From the IMG/VR virus record IMGVR_UViG_2541047953_000002: 28,241 nucleotides of DNA; one strand, given 5' to 3'. The notes below the pieces were generated by a model. That model made no database searches. It was not told the origin of the DNA and was given only the letters and a program-made list of their open reading frames with translations. The stretch's first letter is position 1; each line of letters starts with the position of its first letter. This stretch comes from a virus (lineage: Duplodnaviria > Heunggongvirae > Uroviricota > Caudoviricetes). Shown here in pieces: positions 1-26,960 of this stretch. Both the position numbers and the translations under genes were made by a program.

Positions 1-1284
1 TTACAGACTTCTGGAAGGTTGCGCAGCTCTTACAACACGCGGTTGATCTTCCGCGGCGTCTTCCAGCGCACTTAAATCACGGTCTTTCACTTCTGGCATT
101 TTCAGCGCAGAGATTAAACCAATCACTGAATATGCCATGATCATAATGGCGATCGGATACCAGGATTCCGTCATGGTGCAGAAAATACCCGCCAGGATAG
201 GACCAAAACCGGAAGCGATAAGACCACCAATTTCTTTAGAAATAGCCATCCGGGTAAAGCGGTTTTTACAGCCGAACATTTCTGCCATGGTAATATTTTC
301 CAGAGCAAATAATCCCAGCACCGCACAGTTATGAATCACAATCAGTGCAACCATAATGGTGCTCGGGGCATAGCTTTTATCTACGATGATAGAAAGCATT
401 GGCCATGCCAGCACAATCGCGGAGGTATTCATAATAATATACGGGATCCGGCGACCAATTTTATCGGATAACCAACCAAGGAACGGAATGGTCATAAAGC
501 CGAGAATCGAACTGATCATCAATGCATCTGTTGGAATTGCTTTGTTAAACAATAACGTCTGCACTAAATAGCCCGCAAGGAAAGTCTGAATTAAACCTGA
601 GTTACCCGCCTGACCAAAACGCAGCCCTGTTGCCAGCCAGAAGGATTTGCTCTGGAACATGCTACCAGCAGGTGCAGGTTTTGCTGTCGGTTGGTTGCTG
701 TCGTTAACCTTCTCAAAAACCGGGCTTTCTTTCAGATTCATACGCAACCAGATAGCAAAGACCATCACGACAACGCTCGCCAGGAACGGTATACGCCATC
801 CCCACGCCAGCAGTTCCTCTTTACTGAGAATGAAGAACATAAAGGCCCAGATTGCCGTTGCGCTTAAAGTTCCGCAGTTAGTTCCCATAGCCACAAATGA
901 GGAGATAATTCCGCGCTTACCTTTTGGCGCATATTCCGCCAGCATCGTACCGGCACCGGAAATTTCCGCACCTGCACCCAATCCCTGAATAATACGCAGC
1001 GTCACCAGCAAGATGGGGGCAAAAACACCAATCTGTGCATAGGTCGGTAACACACCAATTAAGGTGGTACAGATCCCCATCATGGTGATGGTAATAAAGA
1101 GCACTTTTTTACGCCCTATTCTGTCGCCCATTTTGCCGAAAATAAATGCTCCGACAATACGCGCCACATAACCTGCACCGTAGGTTCCCATTGCCAGAAT
1201 TAACGCCATTGCCGTTGATGATTCAGGAAAAAATATTTCATGAAACACTAACGCTGCGCCGAGCGAATATAACTGGAAATCCAT
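1..1284 (-). CDS. ydfJ: MFS metabolite:H+ symporter, 3' portion only (427 codons); N-terminal ~35 residues including first half of TM1 are missing at the prophage junction
   Basis: ORF track 1..1284 (-). Contains the MFS loop motif GDRIGRK and about 11 predicted TM segments. The start sits two codons after an in-frame TGA and the protein begins mid-TM1 by comparison with ShiA-type transporters recalled from memory. Confidence 0.8.
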   Translation of the reverse strand: MDFQLYSLGAALVFHEIFFPESSTAMALILAMGTYGAGYVARIVGAFIFGKMGDRIGRKKVLFITITMMGICTTLIGVLPTYAQIGVFAPILLVTLRIIQGLGAGAEISGAGTMLAEYAPKGKRGIISSFVAMGTNCGTLSATAIWAFMFFILSKEELLAWGWRIPFLASVVVMVFAIWLRMNLKESPVFEKVNDSNQPTAKPAPAGSMFQSKSFWLATGLRFGQAGNSGLIQTFLAGYLVQTLLFNKAIPTDALMISSILGFMTIPFLGWLSDKIGRRIPYIIMNTSAIVLAWPMLSIIVDKSYAPSTIMVALIVIHNCAVLGLFALENITMAEMFGCKNRFTRMAISKEIGGLIASGFGPILAGIFCTMTESWYPIAIMIMAYSVIGLISALKMPEVKDRDLSALEDAAEDQPRVVRAAQPSRSL

Positions 1285-1527
1285 AATTCACAGGTGTTTT
1301 TTCCCATCCTGTGGTTTCCTTGGCGTTTTCTAGGTTTTTTCAGATAGTTGCATTTTTTAAAAAGCATCCTAAGTTCGATCTCAGTGTCTATCTGGGGCCT
1401 ATTTCTGTCCCATATATGCCCCAAAAAAACTCCCCAACAGATAAGTAGTTTTTTCATGGATTTATGCGTAAAATCAAGAACGGCTGGAAATCATTCAATA
1501 CTCACACTATCGAAAAATTTACCAGCC

Positions 1528-1568
1528 AACCGCAGCACGTTCTTGCATAAGGCGTGTCTGCGGTTTTT
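1528..1568 (+). terminator. Imperfect ~12-bp hairpin followed by TTTTT; orphan intrinsic-terminator-like structure
   Basis: aaccgcagcacg ... cgtgtctgcggtt then ttttt, seen directly in sequence; no annotated plus-strand gene lies upstream. Confidence 0.3.
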
Positions 1569-1886
1569 CAACTATTCAGATACATCACTCCCATCACATT
1601 CATTCCTCCGCATCAAAGGCATATAGGCTATATCACCTTGATATTTTTCTTTTTCAGATAAAAACTGTTATCTATGTATACTTTTAAACCCAATCCGTGT
1701 AGAGTCTCTGCATAAGATAGTTTGCAGTTGCCGCTTCAGCTTGCGCCATAACCGCCTGATTTTTGCTGCCACCTGTTAGCATTCCTGTATACCTGAAACG
1801 ACAATGTTTATCTACGAACTTTAAGAACACCCAAGATAAAAATTGTCAACTATATCATATATAACACATTACTAATTCGAGGCTAT

Positions 1887-2000
1887 ATGAACAGCATACT
1901 GATAATCACTTCTCTCCTTATCATATTCAGCATTTTTAGTCATGCCCTAATAAAATTAGGGATTGGCATATCCAATAACCCAGACAAAACCGATGTATAA
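1887..2000 (+). CDS. Hypothetical 37-aa hydrophobic peptide ([37 protein letters not shown])
   Basis: ATG preceded by GAGG at 6-nt spacing; one predicted TM helix; below the ORF-track size cutoff, found by manual translation. Confidence 0.25.
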
Positions 2001-2068
2001 GTCAACATATCCTGAATCAGACATACAATATCGCAATGAAAATCAATAATATTTTAAGGAATATCTTC

Positions 2069-2302
2069 ATGAAATCAAAAGACACCCTAAAGTGGTTCCC
2101 TGCGCAGCTTCCTGAAGTAAGAATTATCCTAGGGGATGCTGTAGTGGAAGTAGCAAAACAGGGAAGACCTATCAATACCAGAACATTGCTTGATTACATT
2201 GAAGGAAACATAAAGAAAAAATCATGGCTGGATAACAAAGAATTATTACAAACAGCGATATCAGTTCTTAAAGACAACCAAAATTTAAATGGTAAAATGT
2301 AA
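2069..2302 (+). CDS. ydfK: YdfK/YnaE-family prophage protein (77 aa)
   Basis: ORF track 2036..2302; internal ATG at 2069 has an AAGGAA Shine-Dalgarno at ~8 nt and gives the K-12 length from memory. Confidence 0.75.
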   Translation: MKSKDTLKWFPAQLPEVRIILGDAVVEVAKQGRPINTRTLLDYIEGNIKKKSWLDNKELLQTAISVLKDNQNLNGKM

Positions 2303-2618
2303 TATAATAAACTTACTTTTTTATCATTTTTCCACTTTAACAACATTTTGCTCCACTTTTCCACGACCAAACAACTTAAAATCTGGTTAAAATAACACGA
2401 AACACTATTCTTCTTCCTTGAGTCCGCCCGGAACTCGAAAAACAAACCGAGTTAAAGCCATTTTTCACAAAATCGATTTTGGGTCTCACCAAAATTACGG
2501 GGTTGCATACGCATTCGTTTATTTTCGAACGTGTACATACAAATATGCACAAAAATAATCAAAATTATTTTCTGCGATGCATTATGATATGAACACCAAT
2601 TTCGTATAGAGTCTCACT

Positions 2619-3209
2619 ATGTCTCGAATTTTTGCTTACTGTCGGATATCAACGCTGGATCAGACCACCGAAAATCAACGCCGGGAAATCGAAAGTGCAG
2701 GTTTTAAAATCAAACCTCAGCAAATAATCGAAGAACACATTAGCGGCTCAGCAGCAACCAGTGAGCGTCCTAGTTTTAACCGGTTGCTTGCTCGCCTGAA
2801 ATGTGGTGATCAATTGATTGTGACAAAACTGGATCGCCTTGGTTGTAATGCAATGGATATCAGGAAAACAGTGGAACAACTGACCGAAACAGGTATCAGA
2901 GTGCATTGCTTAGCATTGGGGGGCATTGACTTGACCAGTCCAACAGGAAAAATGATGATGCAAGTAATTTCAGCAGTTGCTGAATTTGAACGAGACCTTT
3001 TACTTGAACGCACTCATTCCGGGATAGTAAGAGCCCGCGGCGCAGGGAAACGTTTTGGTCGACCACCTGTGTTAAATGAAGAACAGAAACAGGTGGTATT
3101 CGAACGAATTAAGTCAGGTGTAAGTATAAGTGCCATTGCCCGGGAATTCAAAACCTCGCGGCAAACCATTTTAAGAGCCAAAGCAAAACTTCAGACACCT
3201 GACATATAA
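2619..3209 (+). CDS. pinQ: Serine recombinase, DNA invertase of the Pin/Gin/Hin family (196 aa)
   Basis: N-terminal resolvase catalytic motif (YCRISTLDQ) and C-terminal HTH; ORF track. Confidence 0.9.
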
Positions 3210-3306
3210 AAAATAATCTCGGTGTGAGATGCTTTACGTCTTCCAAGCCCCCTTCCTTGCCGTAAATGGAAAGATACATCTAATTAAAGAATTTATATGT
3301 TTTACC

Positions 3307-3464
3307 CTACGGCAGTGCTGGCCATTCAATATCCTGTGCAGTTGACGTATCAACACGGTTCAGCAATACCCGATACTTTTTCCATGCTTCCAGCAACGAG
3401 ATTTCTTCCTCCGTTGCAATTTCCAGATCTGCAGCATCCTGAAGCGGCGCAATATGCTCACTGG
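3307..3464 (-). pseudogene. C-terminal remnant (~52 codons, no start) of a tail fibre assembly protein Tfa
   Basis: Manual translation gives ...[29 protein letters not shown], matching the Tfa C-terminus as recalled; the frame differs from the adjacent terminase gene and has no start codon. Confidence 0.6.
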
Positions 3465-4889
3465 CTACACAATGGTCGGGTCAATCCCGCCAGTATCCCA
3501 GCAGATACGGGATATCGACATTTCTGCACCATTCCGGCGGGTATAGGTTTTATTGATGGCCTCATCCACACGCAGCAGCGTCTGTTCATCGTCGTGGCGG
3601 CCCATAATAATCTGCCGATCAATCAGCCAGCTTTCCTCACCCGGCCCCCATCCCCATACGCGCATTTCGTAGCGGTCCAGTTGGGAGTCGATACCGGCGG
3701 TCAGGTAAGCCACACGGTCAGGAACGGGCGCTGAATAATGCTCTTTCCGCTCTGCCATCACTTCAGCATCCGGACGTTCACCGATTTTCGCTTCCCACGT
3801 CTCACCGAGCGTGGTGTTCACGAAGGTTTTACGTTTTCCCGTATCCCCTTTCGTCTTCATCCAGTCTTTGACAATCTGCACCCAGGTGGTGAACGGACTG
3901 TACGCCGTCCAGATGTGAAAGGTCACACTGTCAGGCGGTTCAATCTCTTCACCGGATGACGAAAACCAGAGAATGCCATCACGGGTCCAGATCCCGGTCT
4001 TTTCGCAGATATAACGGGCATCAGTAAAGTCCAGCTCCTGCTGACGGATGACGCAGGCGTTATGCTCACAGAGATAAAACACGCTGGAGGGGTCATCCGG
4101 CATCCATTTGAGGCCAAACGGCGTCTCTTTGTCGCCAAATTTAAGGTACTGCTCCTCCCCGCAGTGCGGGCAGGCAACATGAAAACGCATAAAATGCGGG
4201 GATTCACTGGCTGCACGCTCAATCTGGCAGGTGCCTCTCACTTTGGGCGTGGAGCCACGGATGGACTTTGGCCAGACCGAGCCTTCAATACGTTTGTCGC
4301 CAAGGAACGTCGGAGAGCCTTCCTGTTCAATATCCTCATCAAAGGCAGCAAGTTCATCATAACCCGCCACATCCACCGACTTTTCACGGTAGTTTTTTGC
4401 CGCTTTACCGCCCAGGCACCAGAAGCCACGACCATTGGTGAAACGCTTCATAGTGAGCGTGTTATCCCGGTGCTTTTTGCCATACCACGGAGCCAGCGCC
4501 AGCAGCGACGGAATATCGCGGATGGTCGGCTCAACGTGGGTTTTCATAAAGTTCTCGGCATCACCATCCGTCGGCAACCAGATAAGTGTGTTGCGCTGCT
4601 TATGCTCTATAAAGTAGGCATAAACACCCAGCAGCATTTTGGAATAACCGACACGGGCAGACTTCACCACATTCACCTCACGGATGTAGTCGCTGCCCAT
4701 CGCATTCATGATGGCCCGCTGAAAGGGCAGTGTTTCCCAGCGCCCTTCCTGGTATGCGGATTCTTTCGGGAGATAGTAATTAGCATCCGCCCATTCAACG
4801 GCGGTCTGTGGCTCCGGCCTGAACAGTGAGCGAAGCCCGGCGCGGACAAAATGCCGCAGCCTGTTAACCTGACTGTTCGATATATTCAC
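3465..4889 (-). CDS. Terminase large subunit, lambda gpA homologue, C-terminally truncated (474 of ~641 aa) at a deletion junction
   Basis: Protein matches lambda gpA from [14 protein letters not shown] through ...GGIDPTIV as recalled, then stops; lambda continues YERSKK. Confidence 0.9.
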
Positions 4890-5409
4890 TCAGCAACCCC
4901 GGTATCAGTTCATCCAGCGCGGCTGCTTTGTTCATGGCTTTGATGATATCCCGTTTCAGGAAATCAACATGTCGGTTTTCCAGTTCCGGAAAACGCCGCT
5001 GCACCGACAGGGGGATCCCGTCGAGAATACTGGCAATTTCACCTGCGATCCGCGACAGCACGAAAGTACAGAATGCGGTTTCCACCACTTCAGCTGAGTC
5101 TCTGGCATTCTTCAGTTCCTGTGCGTCGGCCTGCGCACGCGTAAGTCGATGGCGTTCGTACTCAATAGTCCCTGGCTGGAGATCTGTCTCGCTGGCCCGC
5201 CGCAGTTCTTCAACTTCCCGGCGCAGCTTTTCGTTCTCAATTTCAGCATCCCTTTCGGCATACCATCTTATAACGGCGGCAGAGTCATAAAGCACCTCAT
5301 TACCCTTGCCACCGCCTCGCAGAACGGGCATTCCCTGTTCCTGCCAGTTCTGAATGGTACGGATACTCGCACCGAAAATGTCAGCCAGCTGCTTTTTGTT
5401 GACTTCCAT
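4864..5409 (-). CDS. nohA: Terminase small subunit, lambda Nu1 homologue (181 aa)
   Basis: Near-identical to lambda Nu1 as recalled (MEVNKKQLADIFGASIRTIQNWQEQGMPVL...); overlaps the gpA start as in lambda. Confidence 0.9.
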   Translation of the reverse strand: MEVNKKQLADIFGASIRTIQNWQEQGMPVLRGGGKGNEVLYDSAAVIRWYAERDAEIENEKLRREVEELRRASETDLQPGTIEYERHRLTRAQADAQELKNARDSAEVVETAFCTFVLSRIAGEIASILDGIPLSVQRRFPELENRHVDFLKRDIIKAMNKAAALDELIPGLLSEYIEQSG

Positions 5410-5479
5410 TGTTCATTCCACGGCCAAAAACAGAGAAAGGAAACGACAGAGGCCCAAAAGTTCGTTTTCAGCACCTGTC

Positions 5480-5650
5480 GTTTCCTTTCTTTTTAGGGGG
5501 TATTTTAAATAAAAACATTAAGTTACGACGAAGAAGAACGGAAACGCCTTAAACCGGAAAATTTTCATAAATAGCGAAAACCCGCGAGGTCGCCGCCCCG
5601 TAACCTGTCGGATCACCGGAAAGGACCCGTAAAGTGATAATGATTATCAT
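5480..5650. other. cos site (cosQ-cosN-cosB) of lambda type
   Basis: Minus strand reads ...CGACAGGTTACG GGGCGGCGACCT CGCGGGTTTTCGCTATTTATG..., matching the lambda right end, cohesive end and left end as recalled. Confidence 0.8.
5587..5598 (-). other. cosN 12-nt cohesive-end sequence GGGCGGCGACCT
   Basis: Exact match to the lambda cosN 12-mer (established); seen directly. Confidence 0.85.
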
Positions 5651-5797
5651 CTACATATCACAACGTGCGTGGAGGCCATCAAACCACGTCAAATAATCAA
5701 TTATGACGCAGGTATCGTATTAATTGATCTGCATCAACTTAACGTAAAAACAACTTCAGACAATACAAATCAGCGACACTGAATACGGGGCAACCTC

Positions 5798-6031
5798 ATG
5801 TCAACGAAGAACAGAACCCGCAGAACAACAACCCGCAACATCCGCTTTCCTAACCAAATGATTGAACAAATTAACATCGCTCTTGAGCAAAAAGGGTCCG
5901 GGAATTTCTCAGCCTGGGTCATTGAAGCCTGCCGCCGGAGACTGTGCTCAGAAAAAAGAGTTTCTTCTGAAGCAAACAAAGAAAAGAGTGACATTACTGA
6001 ATTGCTCAGAAAACAGGTCAGACCAGATTGA
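5798..6031 (+). CDS. ynfO: Ribbon-helix-helix-like small prophage protein (77 aa)
   Basis: ORF track; RHH-like pattern (RNIRFPNQMIEQINIALEQ...FSAWVIEACRRRL); position and length match Qin ynfO from memory. Confidence 0.6.
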   Translation: MSTKNRTRRTTTRNIRFPNQMIEQINIALEQKGSGNFSAWVIEACRRRLCSEKRVSSEANKEKSDITELLRKQVRPD

Positions 6032-6088
6032 AGCAATTTAGATAATCGTGCAGACTACGCCCCCTCATATCACATGGAAGGTTTATCT

Positions 6089-6499
6089 ATGGATCAGGTA
6101 GTCATTTTTAAACAAATATTTGATAAAGTTCGAAACGATTTAAACTATCAATGGTTTTATTCTGAGCTAAAACGTCACAATGTCTCACATTACATTTACT
6201 ATTTAGCCACAGAGAATGTTCATATTGTATTAAAAAATGATAATACAGTGTTATTAAAGGGCCTAAAAAACATTGTGTCTGTCAAATTTTCAAAGGATAG
6301 GCATCTTATAGAAACGACCTCTAATAAGCTGAAATCCAGAGAGATCACATTTCAGGAATACAGAAGAAACCTTGCTAAAGCAGGAGTTTTTCGGTGGGTT
6401 ACAAATATCCACGAACAAAAAAGATATTACTATACCTTTGATAATTCATTACTATTTACTGAAAGCATCCAGAAAACTACACAGATCTTACCACGCTAA
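6089..6499 (+). CDS. ydfO: DUF1398-family prophage protein (136 aa)
   Basis: ORF track 6074..6499; ATG at 6089 has GGAAGG at ~8 nt and gives the K-12 length. Confidence 0.75.
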
Positions 6500-6599
6500 A
6501 CCATAACGTCCGGCTTCTCTCACTCCTGAGTCGGACTGCATTGGTTTAATAAAAACCATCAACAATTGTGATTTAGATATTCGGAACCATTCAAATATA

Positions 6600-6632
6600 A
6601 CAAAACCCCGTAAAAACGAGGTTTATGGATAA
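6600..6632 (-). terminator. Intrinsic terminator downstream of gnsB, possibly bidirectional
   Basis: Minus strand hairpin aacctcg/cggggtt (one mismatch) followed by a T-rich run. Confidence 0.4.
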
Positions 6633-6650
6633 ATTTTATTATTGAATACA

Positions 6651-6824
6651 TCAGATTAAATTAATCTTGACATCATAGCTTTCAAGACCCGTCATTTTTT
6701 CCCGTGCGGTAAACTGAATACTGGTAACTTCTTTCCCGGTCTTTTTCTTAAGTTCAATAATTTTTTTTGTTATATATTCAGAAATATCTGCTTCTGCTTT
6801 TGTTTTTAAGTTTTCAATATTCAT
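6651..6824 (-). CDS. gnsB: Gns-family small protein (57 aa; secG/fabA suppressor family)
   Basis: Manual translation MNIENLKTKAEADISEYITKKIIELKKKTGKEVTSIQFTAREKMTGLESYDVKINLI; Gns family by similarity recalled from memory; below ORF-track cutoff. Confidence 0.7.
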   Translation of the reverse strand: MNIENLKTKAEADISEYITKKIIELKKKTGKEVTSIQFTAREKMTGLESYDVKINLI

Positions 6825-6995
6825 CATTTCCTCTTTTAGTCTGTTATGACTTTCCAGTTACACAGTAAGTCGATTATATGGTGCAAACGTGTAAAAGATA
6901 AGATGAAACATCGCAATAATCAACATACGATAGTCTAAATTTTACACAAACAGACAAAGAGAATTTTCCTGAATTATCAATGCAATAGCATCAAA

Positions 6996-7151
6996 TCAAC
7001 TCAAGAGCCTTATTGCTGCTTCCAGAATTTCTTCTGAAGTAACATGTCGATCCGCGGCTACATAAATGACTTTATGATCTCCGGTCAGAGATGGAAACCC
7101 TGCGGCCATTACAGTAAGGTGTGTTTTTTCGCCATTTGGATATTCACGCAT
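6996..7151 (-). CDS. ynfN: Small prophage protein (51-aa form; a 76-aa form could start at 7226)
   Basis: ORF track 6996..7268 starts at TTG; the 51-aa start matches the K-12 length from memory; a terminator at 7271-7290 argues against the longest form. Confidence 0.5.
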   Translation of the reverse strand: MREYPNGEKTHLTVMAAGFPSLTGDHKVIYVAADRHVTSEEILEAAIRLLS

Positions 7152-7270
7152 GATGGTGTTAACTCCAGTCATCGCTGGCACTACCACTGCTGGTTCAGAG
7201 TTAAAAAAAACTATGATTTTTTTCATGATGTTACCGTAGTATGTGAGTATCCATCGAATAGACACCAAGC

Positions 7271-7290
7271 AAAAAAGCTCCCGAAGGAGC
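7271..7290 (-). terminator. Intrinsic terminator (hairpin gctcc/ggagc plus T6) in the cspI 3' region
   Basis: Seen directly; T-tract immediately follows the stem on the minus strand. Confidence 0.45.
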
Positions 7291-7497
7291 CTTCATTTTC
7301 ACTTTTTTAAATCCAACGACAGACGGCTGGCATTTAAGTATTGTGAAATATTATCAAATGTAATCATCATTGATTTACAAAAGATACATTTTGCCCCGAA
7401 AGGATTCATGTCAGAAACATCAAAAGATGATGTTCTATACTGGGAACCATGACAACACGGGCATCTAAAGTGAATATGGTTTGTAATATTGTCTACC

Positions 7498-7710
7498 TCA
7501 AAGCGCCACTACATGAACAGCGGCAGGACCTTTAGGTCCGTTCTCAATACCAAATTCAACTTCCTGATTCTCAGTTAATGTTTTGAAATCGTTGCTCTGA
7601 ATTGCTGAGAAATGGACAAACACATCTTTGCTGCCATCTTTCGGCGTGATGAAACCAAAACCTTTTTCAGGGTTAAACCATTTCACTAAACCAGTCATTT
7701 TGTTAGACAT
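7498..7710 (-). CDS. cspI: Cold-shock protein CspA family (70 aa)
   Basis: Protein [38 protein letters not shown]... with RNP1/RNP2 motifs. Confidence 0.95.
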
Positions 7711-8072
7711 AATTATTACCTTTTGAAGAAATTAGCCCTTGGGCAGAATGGTCCGAAAAAAAATATCAGAGAGAAAAACCAACAAGGAAATCTCAAGAGG
7801 TACAAATAATAAAATTATAACAATGACTGCTTCAGATAAATTTGTAACAAACCAGAACACCATTAACGCATGATTAACCACCCATAGCAAGGATTACTTT
7901 TGTAAAGAAAAACACAGCAATGAAAGAATAGCTTTATTTATTAATAAAACGTGTCATTCTGATTAAGACCTTTTATCTTACCCTTAAGATTTCAGGAATT
8001 TTGGCTCATGGAAGAGTCCTTTTTATTTAAATTTTACATTCCGCGATGTAAATGTTCCGATTTAATATTACC

Positions 8073-9096
<1,024 letters not shown>

Positions 9097-9100
<4 letters not shown>

Positions 9101-9408
9101 AGATATTTATGATGAGGACGCTCGTGCTTATTGGCAGGATTTTCAATCTTAAAGGAGTACTGATGCTGCAGATAAGACTCAACTTTTTCTGACAATTTTT
9201 CTGCTACTTCCAGGAAGACTTGCCGGACGCTCCTTCTGGCTGCTGCCTCATAAAACTCCAGCGCAGCTCCTTCAACACGGTCCATGGCGACATCCAGGTC
9301 AAAAATTTCACCGTCAAAGCGTTCTTTGTCCTGTAAGGCTACAGTTACCGTAACTTTATTCTCAAAATTACGGACTCCTTTCACAACCAGTTCATAGTCT
9401 TGAGTCAT
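9097..9408 (-). CDS. ydfR: DUF1327-family prophage protein (103 aa)
   Basis: ORF track; strong Shine-Dalgarno (AGGAG); ATGA overlap with the lysozyme start. Confidence 0.8.
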
Positions 9409-9412
9409 TGGA

Positions 9413-9628
9413 TTACTCTCCTCTCGCAGCCTTACGCCTGTCTTCTTTAATCTTGAAATAAAGATTTGTCAGATACGTCAGCAGGCCAAAAACCAGGCTA
9501 CCCAGCACACCGATTGCAGCCCACTGTGACGGAGTTACTTTATCGAGTAACTGCAATGCCCAGAAACCAGCATTACCCGCCGATGTGCCATAGGCAACAC
9601 CTGTTGTTAACTTATCCATTGATTTCAT
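9413..9628 (-). CDS. essQ: Class II-like holin with dual-start motif (71 aa; second start at 9619)
   Basis: N-terminus M-K-S-M resembles the holin/antiholin dual start; two TM segments; ORF track reports a longer frame 9413..9703. Confidence 0.85.
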
Positions 9629-9847
9629 ATCCTCACCCCGATGTACACGGATGGTGCAATATGTTTGAAAAGATCGGAGTCTACGGGGTAGTTTTGACAG
9701 CACACGTTGTTCTCAACGGCGCTAAAAAAACATACACATTAAAAATGTGGGTAATTATTTTGAAAGAAAGTCATATATAAAATAATAATACGAGAAATGT
9801 TTTCATATTTAGTGTACTGTATACGGCCATTTATACAGGAAAAGCCT

Positions 9848-10018
9848 ATGTCAGAACGTAAAAACTCAAAATCACGCCGTAATTATCTCGTTAAATGTTC
9901 CTGCCCAAACTGCACCCAAGAGTCAGAACACAGTTTTTCAAGAGTACAAAAAGGTGCCCTTTTGATCTGCCCTCATTGCAACAAAGTATTCCAGACAAAT
10001 CTTAAAACTGTAGCCTGA
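9848..10018 (+). CDS. Small zinc-ribbon protein (56 aa; CxCxxC...CxxC)
   Basis: ORF track 9797..10018; internal ATG with AGGA at ~7 nt; four conserved-looking cysteines. Confidence 0.5.
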   Translation: MSERKNSKSRRNYLVKCSCPNCTQESEHSFSRVQKGALLICPHCNKVFQTNLKTVA

Positions 10019-10080
10019 TTGATTTTATTAGTAACAAGTATTTTTTATATTTTAATAATATATTTAAAGCAGATAATAAA

Positions 10081-10100
10081 AAACCCGCCTGAGCGGGTTT
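10081..10100. terminator. Bidirectional intrinsic terminator between the convergent zinc-ribbon gene and cspB
   Basis: Stem aaacccgc/gcgggttt with loop ctga; T-run on the minus strand, weaker T-run on plus. Confidence 0.6.
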
Positions 10101-10381
10101 GAGATTGTGGTGCTTTTTGTGGGAGTCATCCACTTACGCACTTTGTTTTGCCATGCCAGCAGTTAGCTTCTGCTGTAAAACTATTCATGCAGCAAACCTG
10201 CACTTCACCACAATGGTTAGCATACTTTTCCTGATTAAGATTTTGCCAAATATGCTAGCCATTGTTTCATGTATTGGACCTCCTTACTTTTTATTAAAGA
10301 GATCCAATATTCACTACTCTGTCCGTATCTCTACTCAGGCATCAGCCTTCTTCGTTATCGTATACAGACGAGCGATGAATT

Positions 10382-10597
10382 TTAATCAGTAATGATGACA
10401 TTTGCTGCTGCAGGACCTTTAGCACCACTCTCTATAGAGAAGGTAACCTTTTGACCTTCAAATAAGGTTCGATAATTATCATTCTGAATCGCAGAAAAAT
10501 GCACAAACACATCTTTACTACCATCAACAGGAGAAATAAAGCCGAAACCTTTATCAGCGTTAAACCATTTTACTAAACCAGTCATTTTATTTGACAT
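10382..10597 (-). CDS. cspB: Cold-shock protein CspA family (71 aa)
   Basis: Protein [38 protein letters not shown]... Confidence 0.95.
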
Positions 10598-10897
10598 TCT
10601 ACATTCCTTAACTTGAGCCTTTCGGCATAAATGGTTTGCATAACAGAAACGACTTCGTACTTAATTGGAGAGACTCAAAGAAGGAATAAGTGAATAACAC
10701 CTGAAATGAGAACTGCTTTAGTAAACTACTTCGTATATCGTCTGTTCTTCAAACCGACGCAATCATTAACGCATAGTTGAACATATGAAGCAATGTTTAT
10801 TTTAGACATCCAGCCATCTTCAACCCCATCAAAAAACTATAGCTTTCTTCAGGAACGTGTGTATAGTGCGCCAAGTTATCAGTATTAAGGAATTTTT

Positions 10898-11110
10898 TTG
10901 TCCCGTAAAATGACAGGAATTGTCAAAACCTTTGACGGCAAAAGCGGCAAGGGTCTTATCACCCCATCCGATGGTCGTATCGATGTCCAGCTTCATGTTT
11001 CAGCGCTCAATCTCCGCGATGCAGAAGAAATTACCACCGGATTACGCGTGGAATTTTGCCGGATAAATGGTCTGCGTGGCCCTTCAGCTGCCAATGTTTA
11101 CCTTTCATGA
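10898..11110 (+). CDS. cspF: Cold-shock-like protein (70 aa; start codon here is TTG)
   Basis: Protein [41 protein letters not shown]...; divergent from cspB. Confidence 0.85.
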
Positions 11111-11402
11111 GCTATATTAAAGCTTTAATTTCAGGCCCCATCGGATCACACATGGAGAGTTTTTATGAATAACCCCGTCTGTCTTGATGACTGGTTGATT
11201 GGCTTTAAAAGCTTATGCTGTACTTTGGCCGTAATAGCTCTGCTAATAATATAATAAGCAGACTCATTGTGTTTAGGGACATTGTACTGGAAGAAAACAT
11301 TTTAAACATCAGGCAAATAACCAAGTCACCAGCTAAATAATAAGTTAACAGACATGAGTCCCGGGATGAGATTCAACATTACCATTGCCCCATTTAAAGC
11401 AC

Positions 11403-11426
11403 AAAACCCGCTCATCAGCGGGTTTT
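11403..11426. terminator. Intrinsic terminator; candidate tR' for the late promoter on the minus strand and terminator for cspF on plus
   Basis: Stem aaaacccgc/gcgggtttt with T-rich flanks on both strands. Confidence 0.6.
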
Positions 11427-11464
11427 CTACTTTTTCTTAACGTCGGGTATACAAAGCCCATCGT

Positions 11465-11500
11465 TGAAAAAATTTTATCCATATTTTTTGAAAAATGCAA
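11465..11500 (-). promoter_or_regulatory. Candidate late promoter PR' (-35 TTGCAT, 17-nt spacer, -10 TAAAAT) immediately downstream of Q
   Basis: Hexamers read directly on the minus strand; position matches lambdoid PR'/qut architecture. Confidence 0.5.
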
Positions 11501-11531
11501 ACATCATGTCGCCATCTTCAGCAAAAATCAT

Positions 11532-12284
11532 TTATCTCGTCACCTTCCTCAATTGCGCTTCCGCGTATGCTTCTTCCTGCCAGCACTTTGTTACCAGTTT
11601 ACCAATGACGTCCGCATACCCCTTATACCACTGATAATCGGTCAGGTCTGGTACCAGCTTCTGGACATGACGTCGTGCCAGCGTGGTCGGTAAACGACTA
11701 AACCGGTTTCCATTACAACGCCCACAAATCTTATATACCGGTACGCCATGAAACCGGGTTCTTTTTTCATCCAGAACAATCCCTTTACCCTTACACCCTC
11801 TGCACGCTGTGCTGGCTTCGCCCTTACCATGGCAATGCTGACATAGTTCCTTCACCCATTCTTCCTTGATTACAGATTCCCCGCGTCTGTAGTGTTTCAC
11901 CACTTCGCGCAATACATTATAAAATCCCGTACCTGAACAATGCTCACAGCGAGCCTTACTTGCCGCAGACCTGGAGTAATCAGCAAAGGCAAAACTCACG
12001 AGGTAAGGAATAATCTGTAACCGGATTTCTTCACTCAATTTGTTCAATGTCGGGTTATCCAGTGCCATCGCGTAATTTAGCAGGCCTTCAATCGCAAACT
12101 GAGGGTCCTGAACACCAACTTTTGCCAGAAATAAGGCCAACCCAAGTGGTGCTTTCGACTGCACCATCCCCTGCGCTGCCATTACATCCGTAATTGTTAA
12201 ACAACCGGTGCCTGTCGCTGGAGCGTCATCGCTCAATTTTGGAGATTTTGGGGAGTAATATTTTGGTAAGGCTTCAAGGTTCAT
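11532..12284 (-). CDS. quuQ: Late-gene antiterminator Q homologue (250 aa)
   Basis: ORF track 11532..12314; ATG at 12284 has GGAG at ~7 nt; Cys-rich zinc-binding region. Confidence 0.9.
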   Translation of the reverse strand: MNLEALPKYYSPKSPKLSDDAPATGTGCLTITDVMAAQGMVQSKAPLGLALFLAKVGVQDPQFAIEGLLNYAMALDNPTLNKLSEEIRLQIIPYLVSFAFADYSRSAASKARCEHCSGTGFYNVLREVVKHYRRGESVIKEEWVKELCQHCHGKGEASTACRGCKGKGIVLDEKRTRFHGVPVYKICGRCNGNRFSRLPTTLARRHVQKLVPDLTDYQWYKGYADVIGKLVTKCWQEEAYAEAQLRKVTR

Positions 12285-12297
12285 GCTCGTTCTCCAC

Positions 12298-13063
12298 TTA
12301 CGCCAGTACGCCAATTGCCAGCGCGCGATCGATAAAACGAAATATCAGCTCCAGTTGGGAGCCATACTTATCTTCAAATGCCACTGTATCCGTATGCAGC
12401 TCGTTGTGATGCTTTCTGCACAAAGGCAACACAAAGAGATCATGTGCTTTTGTTCCCATTCCGCCCTGCCCGTGACCAATCAGATGATGCGGATCGTCGG
12501 CTGGCATACCGCAGCAAGCACACGGCTGTGTCTTAACCCAACGTGTGTATTTCTCCTTAACCCAGCGGCGACGTTTAGGCAGCTTCATGAAAGATTCCGG
12601 AGACTCTGGATCAACGGTGATGCTTACCACCGTCTTTTCCTGTGGTGATTTTTGTTGCTGGTGGGCGTAAGGCAACGGTGCAAGATTTTTTGTGCGTTGT
12701 TTCAATATGCTGGTGGCGGTCTGCTCTCCCGGTACGATGTCGCTTTCGCGGTACACCGAGCAGATTTTTTCCGCTGGTAATCCCAGCAAACGACGCGATA
12801 CAGCCTCAGGTAGTGCATCCACCACCTGATTGCAGACCGCCCACCAGGATAATTCAGCCAAAGATAATTCCCGCTCCTGCGTACCGCTTATTGCGTGACG
12901 GATGACGTCAATCACCCATGCTGTCAGATTTTGTTGAGCAAGCAGCTCCAGTGATTCCGATGTCTGGTCACGCAGTTGGTTGTCGCAGTGCCAGCACAAC
13001 ACCATTGCGCCGGTACCATAACGGTGAATGACTGTTTCAGTGTGATGGTAATCGCCATTAGGC
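12298..13063 (-). pseudogene. ydfU: ydfU (DUF968, HNH-motif protein) C-terminal 255 codons, separated from its 5' part by an IS66-family insertion
   Basis: HNH-like motif CACCGMPADDPHHL...HH; frame and length reconstruct a 349-aa gene once the IS and one duplication copy are removed. Confidence 0.8.
13056..13063. repeat. 8-bp target-site duplication CATTAGGC (left copy) of the IS66-family element
   Basis: Identical 8-mer at 15596-15603 directly abutting the other IS end. Confidence 0.8.
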
Positions 13064-13148
13064 GTAAGCGTAAACTGACCGCCGTATGTAGCCATCAGAC
13101 GAGAATTGGTAACTTAGACGCCCATCTGATATAGACGGACATCTAAGT

Positions 13149-13574
13149 ATGGAATTACAGGACTGGCGAAAAGAACCTCGTAAAAACTATTCGAATGAAT
13201 TCAAACTTCGTATGGTGGAACTGGCATCACAACCTGGAGCTTGTGTTGCACAGATTGCACGTGAAAATGGCGTCAATGATAATGTTATTTTCAAATGGCT
13301 CAGGCTCTGGCAGAACGAAGGGCGTGTTTCGCGGCGTCTTCCGGTAACGACCTCTTCTGACACTGGCGTTGAATTATTACCTGTAGAAATAACGCCGGAT
13401 GAGCAGAAAGAACCTGTGGCGGCCATTGCGCCGTCTTTATCCACTTCCACTCAGACCAGAGTCAGTGCCAGTTCCTGCAAGGTGGAATTCCGTCACGGTA
13501 ACATGACGCTGGAAAATCCATCGCCAGAGCTGCTCACAGTGTTGATCCGTGAACTGACCGGGAGGGGAAGATGA
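13149..13574 (+). CDS. IS66-family accessory protein TnpA (HTH, 141 aa)
   Basis: ORF track; first gene of the IS66 triad; 4-nt overlap with tnpB. Confidence 0.85.
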   Translation: MELQDWRKEPRKNYSNEFKLRMVELASQPGACVAQIARENGVNDNVIFKWLRLWQNEGRVSRRLPVTTSSDTGVELLPVEITPDEQKEPVAAIAPSLSTSTQTRVSASSCKVEFRHGNMTLENPSPELLTVLIRELTGRGR

Positions 13575-13921
13575 TCTCACTCCCATCAGGTACCCGTATC
13601 TGGCTCGTTGCCGGCGTTACCGATATGCGTAAATCCTTCAACGGACTGGGAGAACAGGTACAACATGTGCTGAATGATAATCCCTTCTCCGGTCACCTGT
13701 TTATCTTCCGTGGCCGACGGGGTGACACCGTCAAAATTCTTTGGGCTGATGCTGATGGTCTGTGCCTGTTCACCAAACGCCTGGAGGAAGGCCAGTTTAT
13801 CTGGCCTGCGGTACGTGACGGCAAGGTATCCATTACCCGCTCGCAACTGGCAATGCTCCTCGATAAGCTGGACTGGCGCCAGCCAAAAACATCCAGCCGT
13901 AACTCACTGACAATGTTGTAA
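13571..13921 (+). CDS. IS66-family TnpB (116 aa)
   Basis: Characteristic N-terminus PSGTRIWLVAGVTDMRKSFNGL. Confidence 0.9.
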   Translation: MISLPSGTRIWLVAGVTDMRKSFNGLGEQVQHVLNDNPFSGHLFIFRGRRGDTVKILWADADGLCLFTKRLEEGQFIWPAVRDGKVSITRSQLAMLLDKLDWRQPKTSSRNSLTML

Positions 13922-13951
13922 AAAACTCCTGACCGCATTATAAAAACGGTC

Positions 13952-15565
13952 ATGAGTCAGAAATACCTCATTCGCATCGCAGAGCTGGAAAGGTTGCTCT
14001 CTGAGCAGGCTGAAGCCCTCCGTCAGAAAGACCAGCAACTGAGTCTGGTTGAAGAGACGGAAGCCTTCCTGCGCTCTGCACTGACACGTGCCGAAGAAAA
14101 GATCGAAGAAGATGAACGGGAAATAGAACATCTGCGGGCTCAGATAGAAAAACTGCGCCGGATGCTGTTCGGTACCCGTTCTGAAAAACTGCGTCGTGAA
14201 GTTGAACTGGCTGAGGCTCTGCTGAAACAACGTGAACAGGACAGCGATCGTTACAGTGGGCGGGAAGACGATCCTCAGGTTCCCCGCCAGTTGCGACAGT
14301 CGCGCCATCGTCGTCCGTTACCGGCACACCTTCCCCGTGAAATACACCGCCTGGAGCCAGAAGAAAGCTGTTGCCCGGAGTGTGGCGGTGAGCTGGATTA
14401 TCTGGGGGAAGTCAGCGCTGAACAGCTGGAACTGGTGAGCAGTGCCCTGAAAGTGATCCGCACAGAACGGGTAAAAAAAGCCTGTACAAAATGTGACTGT
14501 ATTGTTGAAGCACCGGCGCCGTCCCGCCCGATAGAGCGTGGTATCGCGGGCCCCGGATTACTTGCCCGCGTGTTAACGGGAAAATACTGCGAACATCTGC
14601 CACTGTATCGTCAGAGTGAAATCTTTGCCCGCCAGGGTGTCGAACTGAGCCGGGCCTTACTCTCCAACTGGGTTGACGCGTGCTGCCAGTTAATGACACC
14701 GGTGAATGATGCCCTGTACCGTTATGTAATGAACACCCGCAAGGTTCACACTGATGACACACCGGTAAAGGTACTGGCACCGGGTCAGAAAAAGGCGAAA
14801 ACAGGGCGTATCTGGACGTATGTCCGGGATGATCGCAATGTGGGTTCGTCATCTCCTCCAGCGGTCTGGTTCGCGTACTCGCCGAACCGGCAGGGGAAAC
14901 ACCCGGAGCAACACCTCCGCCCCTTCCGGGGTATCCTGCAGGCGGATGCGTTCACAGGTTACGACAGGTTGTTCAGTGCAGAACGTGAAGGTGGTGCACT
15001 GACAGAAGTTGCGTGCTGGGCCCATGCCCGGCGAAAAATCCACGATGTATACATCAGCAGCAAAAGTGCGACGGCAGAAGAAGCCCTGAAGCGAATCAGT
15101 GAACTGTACGCCATCGAGGATGAAATACGGGGATTACCGGAGTCAGAGCGTCTTGCCGTCAGGCAGCAGCGAAGCAAAGTGTTACTGACGTCGCTGCATG
15201 AATGGATGGTGGAGAAGAATGGTACGCTGTCGAAAAAATCCAGACTGGGCGAAGCGTTCAGCTATGTACTGAATCAGTGGGATGCCCTCTGTTATTACAG
15301 TGATGACGGTCTGGCGGAGGCGGATAATAATGCTGCGGAAAGAGCGCTTCGTGCAGTCTGTCTCGGAAAGAAAAACTTTATGTTCTTTGGCAGCGATCAC
15401 GGCGGCGAGCGTGGAGCACTGTTGTACGGGCTGATCGGCACCTGCCGTCTGAACGGTATCGATCCGGAAGCGTATCTGCGCCATATCCTGAGCGTACTGC
15501 CGGAATGGCCTTCCAACCGAGTTGACGAACTCCTGCCATGGAACGTAGTACTCACCAATAAATAA
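13952..15565 (+). CDS. IS66-family transposase TnpC (537 aa)
   Basis: N-terminal coiled coil, CxxC...CxxC zinc finger, and conserved CWAHARRK / NNAAERALR motifs. Confidence 0.9.
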   Translation: MSQKYLIRIAELERLLSEQAEALRQKDQQLSLVEETEAFLRSALTRAEEKIEEDEREIEHLRAQIEKLRRMLFGTRSEKLRREVELAEALLKQREQDSDRYSGREDDPQVPRQLRQSRHRRPLPAHLPREIHRLEPEESCCPECGGELDYLGEVSAEQLELVSSALKVIRTERVKKACTKCDCIVEAPAPSRPIERGIAGPGLLARVLTGKYCEHLPLYRQSEIFARQGVELSRALLSNWVDACCQLMTPVNDALYRYVMNTRKVHTDDTPVKVLAPGQKKAKTGRIWTYVRDDRNVGSSSPPAVWFAYSPNRQGKHPEQHLRPFRGILQADAFTGYDRLFSAEREGGALTEVACWAHARRKIHDVYISSKSATAEEALKRISELYAIEDEIRGLPESERLAVRQQRSKVLLTSLHEWMVEKNGTLSKKSRLGEAFSYVLNQWDALCYYSDDGLAEADNNAAERALRAVCLGKKNFMFFGSDHGGERGALLYGLIGTCRLNGIDPEAYLRHILSVLPEWPSNRVDELLPWNVVLTNK

Positions 15566-15595
15566 GCGTCAATACGGTGCTCCGTTGACGCTTAC

Positions 15596-16701: not shown

Positions 16702-16857
16702 TTACTCCTCAGGTTCGTAAGCTGTGAAGACAGCGACCTCCGTCTGGCCGGTTCGGATTCGTACCTCGCAGAGGTCTTTCCTCGTTACCAGTGCCGTCAC
16801 TATGACGGTTAAACAGATGACGATCAGGGCGATTAACATCGCCTTTTGCTGCTTCAT
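16702..16857 (-). CDS. hokD: Hok-family membrane toxin (51 aa; HokD/RelF)
   Basis: Manual translation MKQQKAMLIALIVICLTVIVTALVTRKDLCEVRIRTGQTEVAVFTAYEPEE; below ORF-track cutoff. Confidence 0.85.
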   Translation of the reverse strand: MKQQKAMLIALIVICLTVIVTALVTRKDLCEVRIRTGQTEVAVFTAYEPEE

Positions 16858-20070: not shown

Positions 20071-20404
20071 GAAAAATCCCCCAGAGAATTGTCTGGGGAC
20101 ATTTTAGAATGGTTCAAAGGGGACATTACAGCTTGGTGTTAACAATAGCCTGCTTCTCCGTGCCTTTCGGCACGTAAGAGGCTAACCTACATGTGTCTAG
20201 CATGAAATTGGCCTCAGATTAATGTTAAGCGTCTTGCAGGACGCGTAATGTTAACTGGGGCTTTTCTCTATCTGCCGTTGGTGTCCATGCCCGAGGCAGA
20301 TAGCCTCAAGCACCCGCAGTCATTCTACTTAACTAAGATTTCCCCGCAAACCGTTTTTGTCCAGCACAGTAAATATCCAACTAAACCAATGGAGTTCGCT
20401 GTAT

Positions 20405-20646: not shown

Positions 20647-20701
20647 GGTAATGGTGCCAACTTACTGATTTAGTGTATGATGGTGTTTTTGAGGTGCTCC
20701 C

Positions 20702-21399: not shown

Positions 21400-21414
21400 G
21401 TTGGAGTCATTACC

Positions 21415-26926: not shown

Positions 26927-26960
26927 CTAAAAGCCACACTAACTAATGAGAGAAGTTGAA

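Follow-up and report, generated by a model that had tools for sequence, protein, structure and literature searches.

A lambda-like cos, nu1 homologue and truncated terminase gene at the edge of a large deletion in a tail-less Qin prophage of Escherichia coli

The stretch of 28,241 nucleotides analysed here (the window) covers the Qin prophage locus at ydfJ of an E. coli strain, in a defective form from which the head and tail genes are gone. Its gene order agrees with the ‘cryptic prophage Qin’ feature of K-12, with the insertion at ydfJ, and the collinear Qin order is found: ynfT-ydfK-pinQ ... nohA-ynfO-ydfO-gnsB-cspI-rzpQ-rrrQ-ydfR-essQ-cspB-cspF-ydfT-ydfU-rem-hokD-relBE. The annotated Qin loci of strains 789, TOK-001 and KL53 show 99.3-99.7% identity over 85-87% of the first 25 kb of the window, and strain VG888-46E9 (NZ_CP128581.1) is 99.875% identical across 9.6 kb. 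An integrase ORF with Arm-binding and catalytic domains starts at 26946 and runs off the window end. Three IS insertions were observed in the element, namely an IS66 family member in ydfU, an ISNCY-like element and an IS1. Within this tail-less Qin lies that end of a lambda-type morphogenetic module which carries cosQ, cosN, cosB, Nu1 and A'. A truncated terminase next to cos and Nu1 in a tail-less Qin was also the structure described in the earlier note, and this reading holds. The features are as follows:

2619..3209, plus strand: pinQ, serine invertase (Pfam Resolvase and HTH_7; annotated as pinQ in collinear genomes)
3307..3465, minus strand: 3' remnant of tfaQ (tail-fibre assembly), last 53 codons and stop
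3466..3468, minus strand: deletion junction with a 3-bp GTA microhomology, seen in a three-way alignment that includes the intact prophage of VG888-46E9 and in endpoint mapping
3465..4889, minus strand: A', truncated terminase large subunit, gpA codons 1-474 plus TAG, GTG start
4864..5409, minus strand: nohA, full-length Nu1 homologue of 181 aa (terminase small subunit)
5434..5449, minus strand: R1 TerS site (lambda 151-166, NC_001416 numbering), CTGTCGTTTCCTTTCT, lambda-identical
5475..5490, minus strand: R2, inverted TerS site (lambda 109-124), AGAAAGGAAACGACAG, lambda-identical
5509..5534, minus strand: I1, IHF-binding/bend segment (lambda bp 65-90), a single change
5534..5549, minus strand: R3, the critical TerS (Nu1) site (lambda bp 50-65), AGGCGTTTCCGTTCTT, lambda-identical
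5549..5581, minus strand: I2 spacer (lambda bp 18-50), lambda-identical
5585..5600, minus strand: cosN, 0 mismatches to lambda
5622..5628, minus strand: cosQ heptamer GGGTCCT (lambda 48473-48479), lambda-identical and invariant in 10/10 aligned cos regions
5629..5960, minus strand: lambda right-end homology 5' of cosQ (lambda 48141-48472), where the ungapped BLAST alignment begins at 5960

The minus strand from 5960 to 3466 corresponds to lambda 48141..48502 plus 1..2134 (NC_001416 numbering) as a single ungapped match in a BLAST comparison with resequenced lambda (PV340536; E = 0). According to the earlier note, this match was almost base for base. That description suits a core of 408 identical bp (window 5527-5934, lambda 48167..72) spanning cosQ, cosN, I2 and R3, but is too strong for the whole block, which has 53 mismatches in 2495 bp (97.9% identity). 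The homology also does not start at 5650, as had been supposed, but about 310 bp farther upstream at 5960, so that it overlaps the 5' part of ynfO, a plus-strand gene. Six mismatches are clustered at 5935-5956, and 5960 marks the mosaic boundary between lambda-like and non-lambda Qin sequence. Beyond it, the upstream Qin neighbours show 82% identity to lambda over 386 bp and then no match, in line with the suggestion that the neighbouring Qin genes are more diverged. At the other end, lambda identity stops at 3466, exactly as placed previously, after ...ATTGTGTA. The region is that end of a lambda-family late operon at which packaging starts, and consists of cosQ, cosN, I2, cosB (R3-I1-R2-R1), nu1 (nohA) and codons 1-474 of A. 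Order, spacing and orientation from cosQ to A are all shared with the lambda cos-nu1-A region (NC_001416 48141-48502 + 1-2134); lambda, however, is an intact phage, whereas the element in the window is chromosomal with A cut at codon 474.

Next, the cos subsites were compared in an alignment of 10 sequences, including five isolated phages and four Qin alleles. For cosN, 17 of 17 positions at 5585-5601 agree with ACGGGGCGGCGACCTCG and with lambda; the 12-nt cohesive-end sequence GGGCGGCGACCT lies at 5598-5587, with 2 flanking bp on either side. Using the published 16-bp definition of cosN and its nick position (PMC9026076), nicks are predicted at 5599/5598 on the minus strand and at 5587/5586 on the plus strand. 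cosQ is the packaging-termination signal, termination requiring both cosQ and cosN (PMC4669245), while I2 is essential and needed to initiate packaging, with I1 defined as bp 65-90 (PMC4856287). R3 covers bp 50-65 with contact bases 55-63 (PMC9026076). Its bp 54 is altered in K-12 Qin (G54A) and in phage PhiR42_1, and the window keeps the lambda base.

In the cosB region seven changes were found, every one outside the R sites. One lies in I1 (lambda 73 A>G, window 5526), where G is the majority allele (8/10 aligned sequences, including the five isolated phages). The changes at lambda 102 and 105 are those closest to R2, 4-7 bp outside it, and R1 is surrounded by spacer changes at lambda 134, 138 and 145 and a further change at 176. 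Five of the seven also occur in PhiR42_1; VG888-46E9 has the other two (105 G>A and 138 G>A), which none of the five isolated phages aligned carries. The order and orientation R3-I1-R2-R1 (R2 inverted) and the distance from cosN to R3 are as in lambda, with 0 indels relative to resequenced lambda. The lambda record NC_001416 itself contains one additional G at 138/139, which is absent from resequenced lambda, from the window and from 8/8 other aligned relatives. All cos subsites required according to the literature are lambda-identical, or carry substitutions only outside the defined sites. The check for divergence in cosB and cosN therefore leaves the apparently intact cos of the earlier note unrefuted, with 0 substitutions in cosN and none in R3, R2 and R1.

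Nevertheless, the changes at lambda 105, at 138 and at position 73 in I1, or the chromosomal context, might block terminase binding, leaving the block inert during superinfection. Two of these changes are not shared with any of the five isolated phages, one falls within I1, and small alterations of cos spacing or sequence can be lethal to initiation (PMC4856287, PMC9026076). Such a dead cos is nonetheless quite unlikely. All changes fall outside R3, R2, R1, I2, cosN and cosQ, the critical R3 is identical, and the spacing is the same as in resequenced lambda and in natural phages. The near-intact prophage of VG888-46E9 moreover bears the identical cos sequence. Phage N15, which shares the lambda specificity, packages with a single R site (PMC4669245, PMC9026076), suggesting tolerance outside R3.

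The nohA product matches Pfam Phage_Nu1 (PF07471) over its full length (335 bits, profile positions 1-164 of 164). Compared to lambda Nu1, 8 nt and 4 of the 181 aa differ (K48R, Q71R, A75T, L132I), while residues 1-47, including the winged HTH, and 133-181, including the TerL-binding end, are identical. A' overlaps nohA by 26 nt, like in lambda. It differs from lambda gpA(1-474) at 32 nt, 31 of which are third codon positions, and at only two amino acids, D185E and T263M. This 31:1 third-position bias points to past selection in working phages, as the intact prophage of VG888-46E9 is 99.8% identical across the block (6/2495 positions differ, none in cos). The Pfam GpA_ATPase domain (PF05876) is as complete as in lambda gpA (residues 47-285, profile positions 3-237 of 247). 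In contrast, GpA_nuclease (PF20454) is covered only for profile positions 2-152 of 294, versus 2-286 in lambda gpA. A' ends at residue 474 of 641, without a complete nuclease, the distal coiled-coil helix or the C-terminal portal tether. In the TerL domain order, the part of lambda gpA past 474 includes this coiled-coil helix and portal tether (PMC9026076). A' hence retains the TerS-binding N-terminus and the entire ATPase domain, but half of its nuclease domain is gone, as is everything past 474. Because the nuclease is incomplete and the protein stops at 474/641, A' is not a functional terminase, and the Qin element is unable to package its own DNA or to cut it.

The abrupt end at 3465/3466 reported in the earlier note is a true boundary, but not the end of lambda-related DNA, since a tfa match resumes beyond it: window 3468-3317 is 93.4% identical to lambda tfa (22387-22538). 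This return to lambda-like DNA identifies the abrupt end as a deletion junction. The trinucleotide GTA is common to A (..TTGTGTA/TGAACGC) and tfaQ (..GCAGGTA/GCCAGTG), and the TAG stop of A' (3467-3465) was created by the junction. The tfaQ remnant, in a frame different from that of A', covers profile positions 79-130 of 131 of Pfam Caudo_TAP and is 100% identical to the 3' end of tfaQ in VG888-46E9. The latter strain carries, at the shared locus and with a right flank 100% identical to the window, a full-length Qin-like prophage that keeps A (641 aa), W, portal, protease, D, E, FI, FII, Z, U, V, G, T and H, as well as M, L, K, I, J, lom, stf (interrupted by IS1) and tfaQ. It is an unproven prophage, with its side tail fibre gene broken by IS1. 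Relative to VG888-46E9, 22,113 bp are missing from the window, a figure that includes one IS1 of VG888-46E9; in lambda terms, the interval from ~2135 to ~22386 is absent. A single illegitimate deletion of ~22 kb fused A codon 474 to tfaQ codon ~139 and took the rest of A plus all head and tail genes. On the right-hand side of the deletion, which it flags, pinQ is convergent with the tfaQ remnant.

Other origins of the junction were discarded. An assembly artefact or chimera at 3465/3466 is ruled out because the junction and the exact 474-aa product recur in independent assemblies and sequencing runs, on 12 contigs or more. A site-specific deletion by the Pin invertase or another system, suggested by endpoints that recur among alleles of the locus, was rejected, as the breakpoints show only microhomologies of 2-6 nt; they are also unlike the crossover sites of invertases (hix, gix). 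An Rfam match (IS009, 3341-3535) raised the option of an sRNA across the junction. However, its score came from the conserved 3' coding region of tfa, with the 70 nt on the A side poorly aligned.

During growth of a phage with lambda specificity, the Nu1/gpA holoenzyme together with IHF would bind R3-I1-R2 and nick cosN at the two positions given above. Judging from its sequence, the cos in the window should be cleavable in trans by such a terminase. This fits the published case of passive prophages that have a cos on either side and are packaged by a helper (PMC4669245). The terminase would then remain on the Nu1-side end and translocate toward A', pinQ and ydfJ, i.e. toward window position 1. 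The window contains no other cosN, even with 3 mismatches allowed, and a downstream cos partner was likewise absent from the next 12 kb of the source scaffold and from 50 kb downstream in VG888-46E9, the closest complete genome. Cos-to-cos packaging via a second site was accordingly dismissed. Since a downstream cosQ-cosN is absent, packaging would be unable to terminate, and the expected outcome would be a chromosomal double-strand break with abortive, one-ended packaging. Recombination between phage and Qin and marker rescue beside cos would be stimulated. Transduction of flanking markers is unlikely, as termination requires a downstream cosQ-cosN and none was found; efficient transduction from this cos would therefore not be expected. 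Terminase is reportedly lethal in rec- cells (Murialdo, in 1988), and lambda generalised transduction is said to have been described by Sternberg in 1986. In the open-access literature, no direct demonstration was found of terminase cutting a cryptic-prophage cos in the chromosome. De Paepe et al. go no further than proposing such cutting, for DLP12. Overall, the locus is best read as the packaging-end remnant of Qin, left by a ~22-kb deletion at GTA, with a lambda-like cos that should be cleavable in trans and would start non-terminating packaging. A probability of roughly 85% is given to this joint reading.

The block as such is widespread, with 3302 of 5426 complete E. coli genomes holding at least 80% of it, and a lambda-like cos block in this arrangement is not special. 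The A474-tfaQ junction is absent from the 5426 complete RefSeq E. coli genomes and from the GTDB species representatives and the metagenome contig collection. The A474-tfaQ allele is real and inherited. Exactly this 474-aa product is encoded by 12 or more contigs, which stem from no fewer than 6 NCBI draft assemblies as well as one ENA metagenome and Logan runs, and scaffold KE702490.1 of GCA_000461535.1 is 100% identical to window 1-14889. Deletions at the Qin locus vary widely among other E. coli strains, and at least 8 different alleles were catalogued. Some of their endpoints are shared exactly, with the tfaQ-side endpoint CAGGTA/GCC common to two alleles and the A-side endpoint CGGATA/CC common to two alleles. 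One contig of GCA_005395425.1 has DLP12 sequence on its left and Qin sequence on its right and may be a recombinant of the two prophages. A general breakpoint hotspot at the tfaQ nucleotide was rejected, as a collection-wide scan for any junction there gave 0; the retrieved normal copies of the tfaQ site were all (120/120) in an ordinary tfa context. This exact sharing of endpoints among alleles is unaccounted for by one random deletion per lineage and speaks against the joint reading.

Another possibility might be that the block is an anti-phage decoy under selection. NohA and A' would form dead mixed protomers with the invading terminase: the TerL fragment would join the multimer without cutting or portal docking and so poison a terminase of lambda specificity, while the chromosomal cos would soak up and titrate holoenzyme at the price of a suicidal break, giving a smaller burst. 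A' keeps exactly the TerS-binding and multimer-joining parts (domain map in PMC9026076), NohA is lambda-identical from 133 to 181, including the TerL-binding end, and satellites do interfere with helper packaging via TerS-binding proteins (PMC9026076). In addition, cos and nohA are kept in 8/8 Qin alleles examined. However, these eight alleles were retrieved with a query containing the block, so their retention of it is an artefact of ascertainment. A' ends anywhere from before codon 10 up to full length and K-12 Qin has no A at all, so that A' is not conserved in any particular form. The stop codon is an accidental product of the junction and the third-position bias reflects past selection in working phages. 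Expression would require the Qin late promoter and Q, and a sigma-70-like promoter was not found in 3200-6100. An adapted decoy is therefore very unlikely, and we infer that the cos-nohA-A' block is a decaying remnant and not an adapted device.

A cos on defective or non-phage DNA that is cut in trans by terminase is also known from passive prophages, cosmids and cos-type PICIs (PMC4669245, PMC4856287, PMC6092414). In those substrates, tandem prophages or concatemers, a second cos of the same orientation allows packaging to terminate, whereas the window has a single chromosomal cos. PICIs furthermore use a cosB of their own together with Rpp (PMC9026076), while the cosB in the window is that of lambda and the cos-adjacent gene is nu1 instead of rpp. 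In the manner of cos-type PICIs, Qin might still be a helper-dependent mobile satellite that is excised via its integrase, replicated and packaged through cos by a lambda-like helper. The integrase ORF with both domains and the apparently intact cos would suit this scenario, and lambda and phi80 transfer cos-bearing islands (PMC6092414), but K-12 Qin stays unexcised on lambda infection (PMC3945230). The three IS insertions and a monomer of ~27 kb argue against it as well. Such a monomer is well under the headful limit of lambda. Mobility of this kind is extremely unlikely, and the preferred reading is still that of a packaging-end remnant.

A lambda-type cos with a Nu1 homologue in defective lambdoid E. 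coli prophages has long been established, as nohA in Qin and as nohD with aaaD in DLP12, and such blocks have been published as recombination substrates for infecting lambda (PMC3945230). The locus is an ordinary prophage remnant of a familiar kind, with little importance beyond bookkeeping. What is added is a clean case, dated by comparison, of a complete Qin-like prophage becoming tail-less by a single microhomology deletion, together with a catalogue of at least 8 alleles of one locus that differ in their deletions. Packaging from this cos is further predicted to be one-ended, to proceed toward ydfJ, the mar genes and the lsr operon and not to terminate, a prediction relevant only to testing cos-initiated chromosome mobilisation by lambdoid phages.

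K-12 carries two comparable blocks. Its Qin (nohA-stfQ-tfaQ-pinQ, NC_000913.3 1632277-1652745) shares the ydfJ site, collinear flanking genes and, apart from a few positions, the cos region. Its deletion, however, runs from the final nohA codons to stfQ, so that A is wholly lost and nohA has become a 189-aa fusion. DLP12 (cos-nohD-aaaD-tfaD) likewise combines a lambda-type cos with a Nu1 homologue of full length (546 bp), followed by an A pseudogene fragment and a tfa fragment, but it is a separate prophage at another chromosomal site with other breakpoints, and its A fragment measures ~309 bp versus 1422 bp in the window. Across cos, DLP12 shares 98% identity with lambda over 3353 bp, and its nu1 is functional in lambda (PMC3945230). 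Recombination of lambda with DLP12 is ~100-fold more frequent, half of the junctions adjoining cos (PMC3945230). Cleavage in trans would also fit this recombination hotspot beside the DLP12 cos during lambda growth (PMC3945230).

The cos block of the Qin prophage at ydfJ can be aligned without gaps to phage lambda over 2495 bp (window 3466-5960, minus strand, against resequenced lambda PV340536), with 53 mismatches and 97.9% identity. In NC_001416 numbering, the lambda counterpart is 48141-48502 followed by 1-2134. The longest perfect run (408 bp, window 5527-5934) spans cosQ, cosN, I2 and R3. The earlier note had described the match as almost base for base, which holds for this run but overstates the block as a whole. 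Identity stops after ...ATTGTGTA at 3466, where a TAG stop is created at 3467-3465. The lower boundary proposed at 3465/3466 is thus exact by alignment, but homology extends past the proposed upper boundary of 5650 to 5960, about 310 bp further out. The structural interpretation as a cos-Nu1-A' remnant was correct. NC_001416 has an extra G at 138/139 (GG) in the R2-R1 spacer, where a single base stands in resequenced lambda, in the window and in each of the eight other aligned relatives. The extra base, probably specific to the reference record, shifts every downstream coordinate by one.

The limits of the cos subsites in the window were taken from published definitions (PMC9026076, PMC4856287, PMC4669245).

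Features of the cos-nohA-A' block (window coordinates, strand, description)
5622-5628, minus: cosQ, identical to lambda
5585-5600, minus: cosN, identical to lambda
5549-5581, minus: I2, identical to lambda
5534-5549, minus: R3, identical to lambda
5509-5534, minus: I1, position by published bp 65-90
5475-5490, minus: R2, identical to lambda
5434-5449, minus: R1, identical to lambda
4864-5409, minus: nohA, full-length Nu1 homologue (Pfam Phage_Nu1, 335 bits, whole profile)
3465-4889, minus: A', gpA codons 1-474, GTG start, lambda-type 26-nt overlap with nu1

In lambda, cosN consists of the 12-nt cohesive end and the 2 bp that flank it on either side. R3 occupies bp 50-65 and is contacted by protein at 55-63, one 16-mer is common to R2 and R1, and Nu1 starts at 191 (PMC9026076). 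I2, at bp 18-50, is an essential element in initiation, and I1 covers bp 65-90 (PMC4856287). Termination of packaging requires both cosQ and cosN (PMC4669245). The spacing of the subsites is the same as in lambda. Seven substitutions lie between lambda 73 and 176, none of them inside the R sites. In an alignment with four Qin alleles and five isolated lambdoid phages, phage PhiR42_1 shares five of these changes (73G, 102C, 134A, 145G and 176G), 73G being the majority allele, and two (105 G>A and 138 G>A) are private within this alignment. As these two are not seen in isolated phages, a dead cos is possible, but both fall outside all defined sites. They are also present in VG888-46E9 (NZ_CP128581.1), a near-intact Qin-like prophage whose cos region equals that of the window. 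Since the subsites are identical and the private changes are also in VG888-46E9, the alignment reveals neither the cosB/cosN divergence nor the cosN point mutations that would speak against the apparently intact cos of the earlier note. On alignment, every sequence determinant for recognition by a terminase of lambda specificity is shown to be present. Elsewhere, G54A lies inside R3, just outside the 55-63 contacts, in K-12 Qin, EC812A1 and phage PhiR42_1; at this position the window agrees with lambda. In strain 789, R3 has lost 1 bp, so that its cos may be impaired.

NohA differs from lambda Nu1 by four conservative amino acid changes, with residues 1-47, including the winged helix-turn-helix, being identical. 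A' differs from lambda at 32 nucleotides, 31 of them at third codon positions, and the only amino acid changes are D185E and T263M; this divergence built up while the gene worked in phages. The Pfam GpA_ATPase domain is complete, but GpA_nuclease is covered only at profile positions 2-152 of 294, as A' ends at residue 474 of 641. According to the published domain order (PMC9026076), lambda gpA has its distal coiled-coil helix and portal tether within the part that is missing here. Judged by its domain content, the terminase of the element is shown to be defective, and the element is unable to cut or package DNA by itself.

Past 3466, the sequence continues with the 53 final codons of tfaQ, a tail-fibre assembly gene (Pfam Caudo_TAP match; 100% identical to tfaQ of VG888-46E9, 93.4% to lambda tfa 22387-22538), and then with the convergent invertase gene pinQ. 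In a three-way alignment the two sides meet cleanly at window 3466-3468, where they share a 3-bp microhomology, GTA. VG888-46E9 is 99.8% identical to the window across the block, both window flanks carry its SNP haplotype, and it has A, W, portal, protease, D, E, FI, FII, Z, U, V, G, T, H, M, L, K, I, J, lom, stf and tfaQ. The window lacks 22,113 bp relative to this prophage, counting one IS1 that VG888-46E9 carries. An Rfam IS009 (RF02111) sRNA scored above the gathering threshold at 3341-3535 (minus); what aligns is 3' coding sequence conserved among tail-fibre assembly genes, and the family looks like a coding-sequence artefact, not an sRNA.

Eight Qin alleles mapped on VG888-46E9 show eight different deletions, with microhomologies of 2-6 nt, and even alleles sharing one SNP haplotype differ in deletion. 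Therefore, decay of the morphogenetic region in Qin is fast and recurrent. K-12 Qin has a different deletion, from the nohA end into stfQ. DLP12 of K-12 has the layout of the window (cos, nohD, the terminase-A fragment aaaD and tfaD); a remnant of this kind is already known. The domain content of A' would suit a selected packaging-interference decoy, but A' endpoints among strains range from nothing to full length, its stop codon is accidental, and the seemingly universal retention of cos and nohA reflects the way the alleles were found. Some deletion endpoints coincide exactly in alleles whose SNP haplotypes differ. EC812A1 has the same tfaQ resume point as the window (...CAGGTA/GCCAGTG) with A-side ends 134 bp apart, and EC812A1 and TOK-001 have the same A break (...CGGATA/CCGCG) with resume points 922 bp apart. 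Hotspots, nested deletions with flank conversion or chance could explain this. In TOK-001 (L028, 1483-3594), the deletion has joined the first 519 codons of A, in frame, with ~184 C-terminal codons of the side tail fibre gene, and the product is annotated as a 703-aa chimeric 'terminase' ORF.

The genes flanking the block are collinear with the K-12 'cryptic prophage Qin' and with Qin loci annotated in many strains. Of 5426 complete RefSeq E. coli genomes, 3302 contain 80% or more of the 2.5-kb block. The exact A'-tfaQ junction was found neither in these 5426 genomes nor among GTDB species representatives; the exact 474-aa product occurs on at least 12 contigs from draft assemblies, one metagenome and Logan runs. 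Scaffold KE702490.1 (GCA_000461535.1) is 100% identical to window 1-14889 and probably the scaffold from which the window comes. Contig BGFO01000115.1 (GCA_005395425.1) joins a DLP12-type left flank (fimbrial genes, a fimZ-like gene, porin, bor, ybcV and ylcI) to the window-type cos-Nu1-A'474-pinQ, with the switch point at window ~5785 and a single mismatch over 3422 bp. This draft contig represents either a DLP12 x Qin recombinant via the shared cos block or an assembly chimera.

Cleavage of this cos in trans, as proposed in the earlier note, is plausible from the sequence. If a phage with lambda packaging specificity infects or is induced, its terminase, together with IHF, would be expected to occupy R3-I1-R2 and to nick cosN. 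The enzyme would afterwards keep to the nu1-side end and move along the DNA in the direction of A', pinQ and ydfJ. Passive prophages between two cos sites are packaged by a helper (PMC4669245), and lambda mediates transfer of cos plasmids and cos islands (PMC6092414). Lambda-DLP12 recombination is ~100-fold more frequent than with the Qin or Rac regions without cos, half of the junctions adjoin cos, and lambda can use the nu1 of DLP12 (PMC3945230). These cases lend support to the proposed terminase action on the window cos. Termination of packaging needs a downstream cosQ-cosN (PMC4669245), and none was found in the window, over 12 kb of the source scaffold or across 50 kb of core chromosome in the closest complete genome, a stretch taking in ydfJ, mar, lsr and hipBA. 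Because of this, the expected outcome would be a double-strand break, recombination with marker rescue and abortive one-ended packaging. Flanking markers are not expected to be transduced efficiently, and transduction, suggested earlier as a read-out, is unlikely to work. With its integrase, Qin here might also be a helper-dependent satellite, but the element is riddled with IS elements, its cosB is lambda's own with no Rpp system, and lambda infection does not lead to excision of Qin in K-12 (PMC3945230).

An IS66-family element (13064-15594; three ORFs of 141, 116 and 537 aa; apparent 8-9 bp target duplication) is inserted in ydfU. The deletion is older than this insertion, because sister assemblies with the same A'-tfaQ junction lack it. 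The window also holds an ISNCY-like transposase gene (18757-20070; HTH and rve_3 domains, 436 aa) and an IS1 gene (DDE_Tnp_IS1, ~20700-21400). Among the window ORFs at ~21.4-24.1 kb, the dicA/dicC/dicB immunity region present in K-12 and in strain 789 was not identified. A tyrosine integrase ORF of >431 aa (26946-28241, plus; Arm-DNA-binding and Phage_integrase domains) continues past the window end. Qin in this strain may thus keep an intact int, unlike K-12 Qin, whose intQ is a pseudogene. An Rfam sok antitoxin match (20144-20315, minus, 104 bits) adjoins the ISNCY-like transposase, ~3.3 kb from hokD (16702-16857), which points to either a second hok/sok-type locus or a sok that has been displaced. 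Full-length matches to the cspA-type thermoregulator 5' UTR lie over cspI (7471-7856, minus) and cspB (10366-10758, minus).
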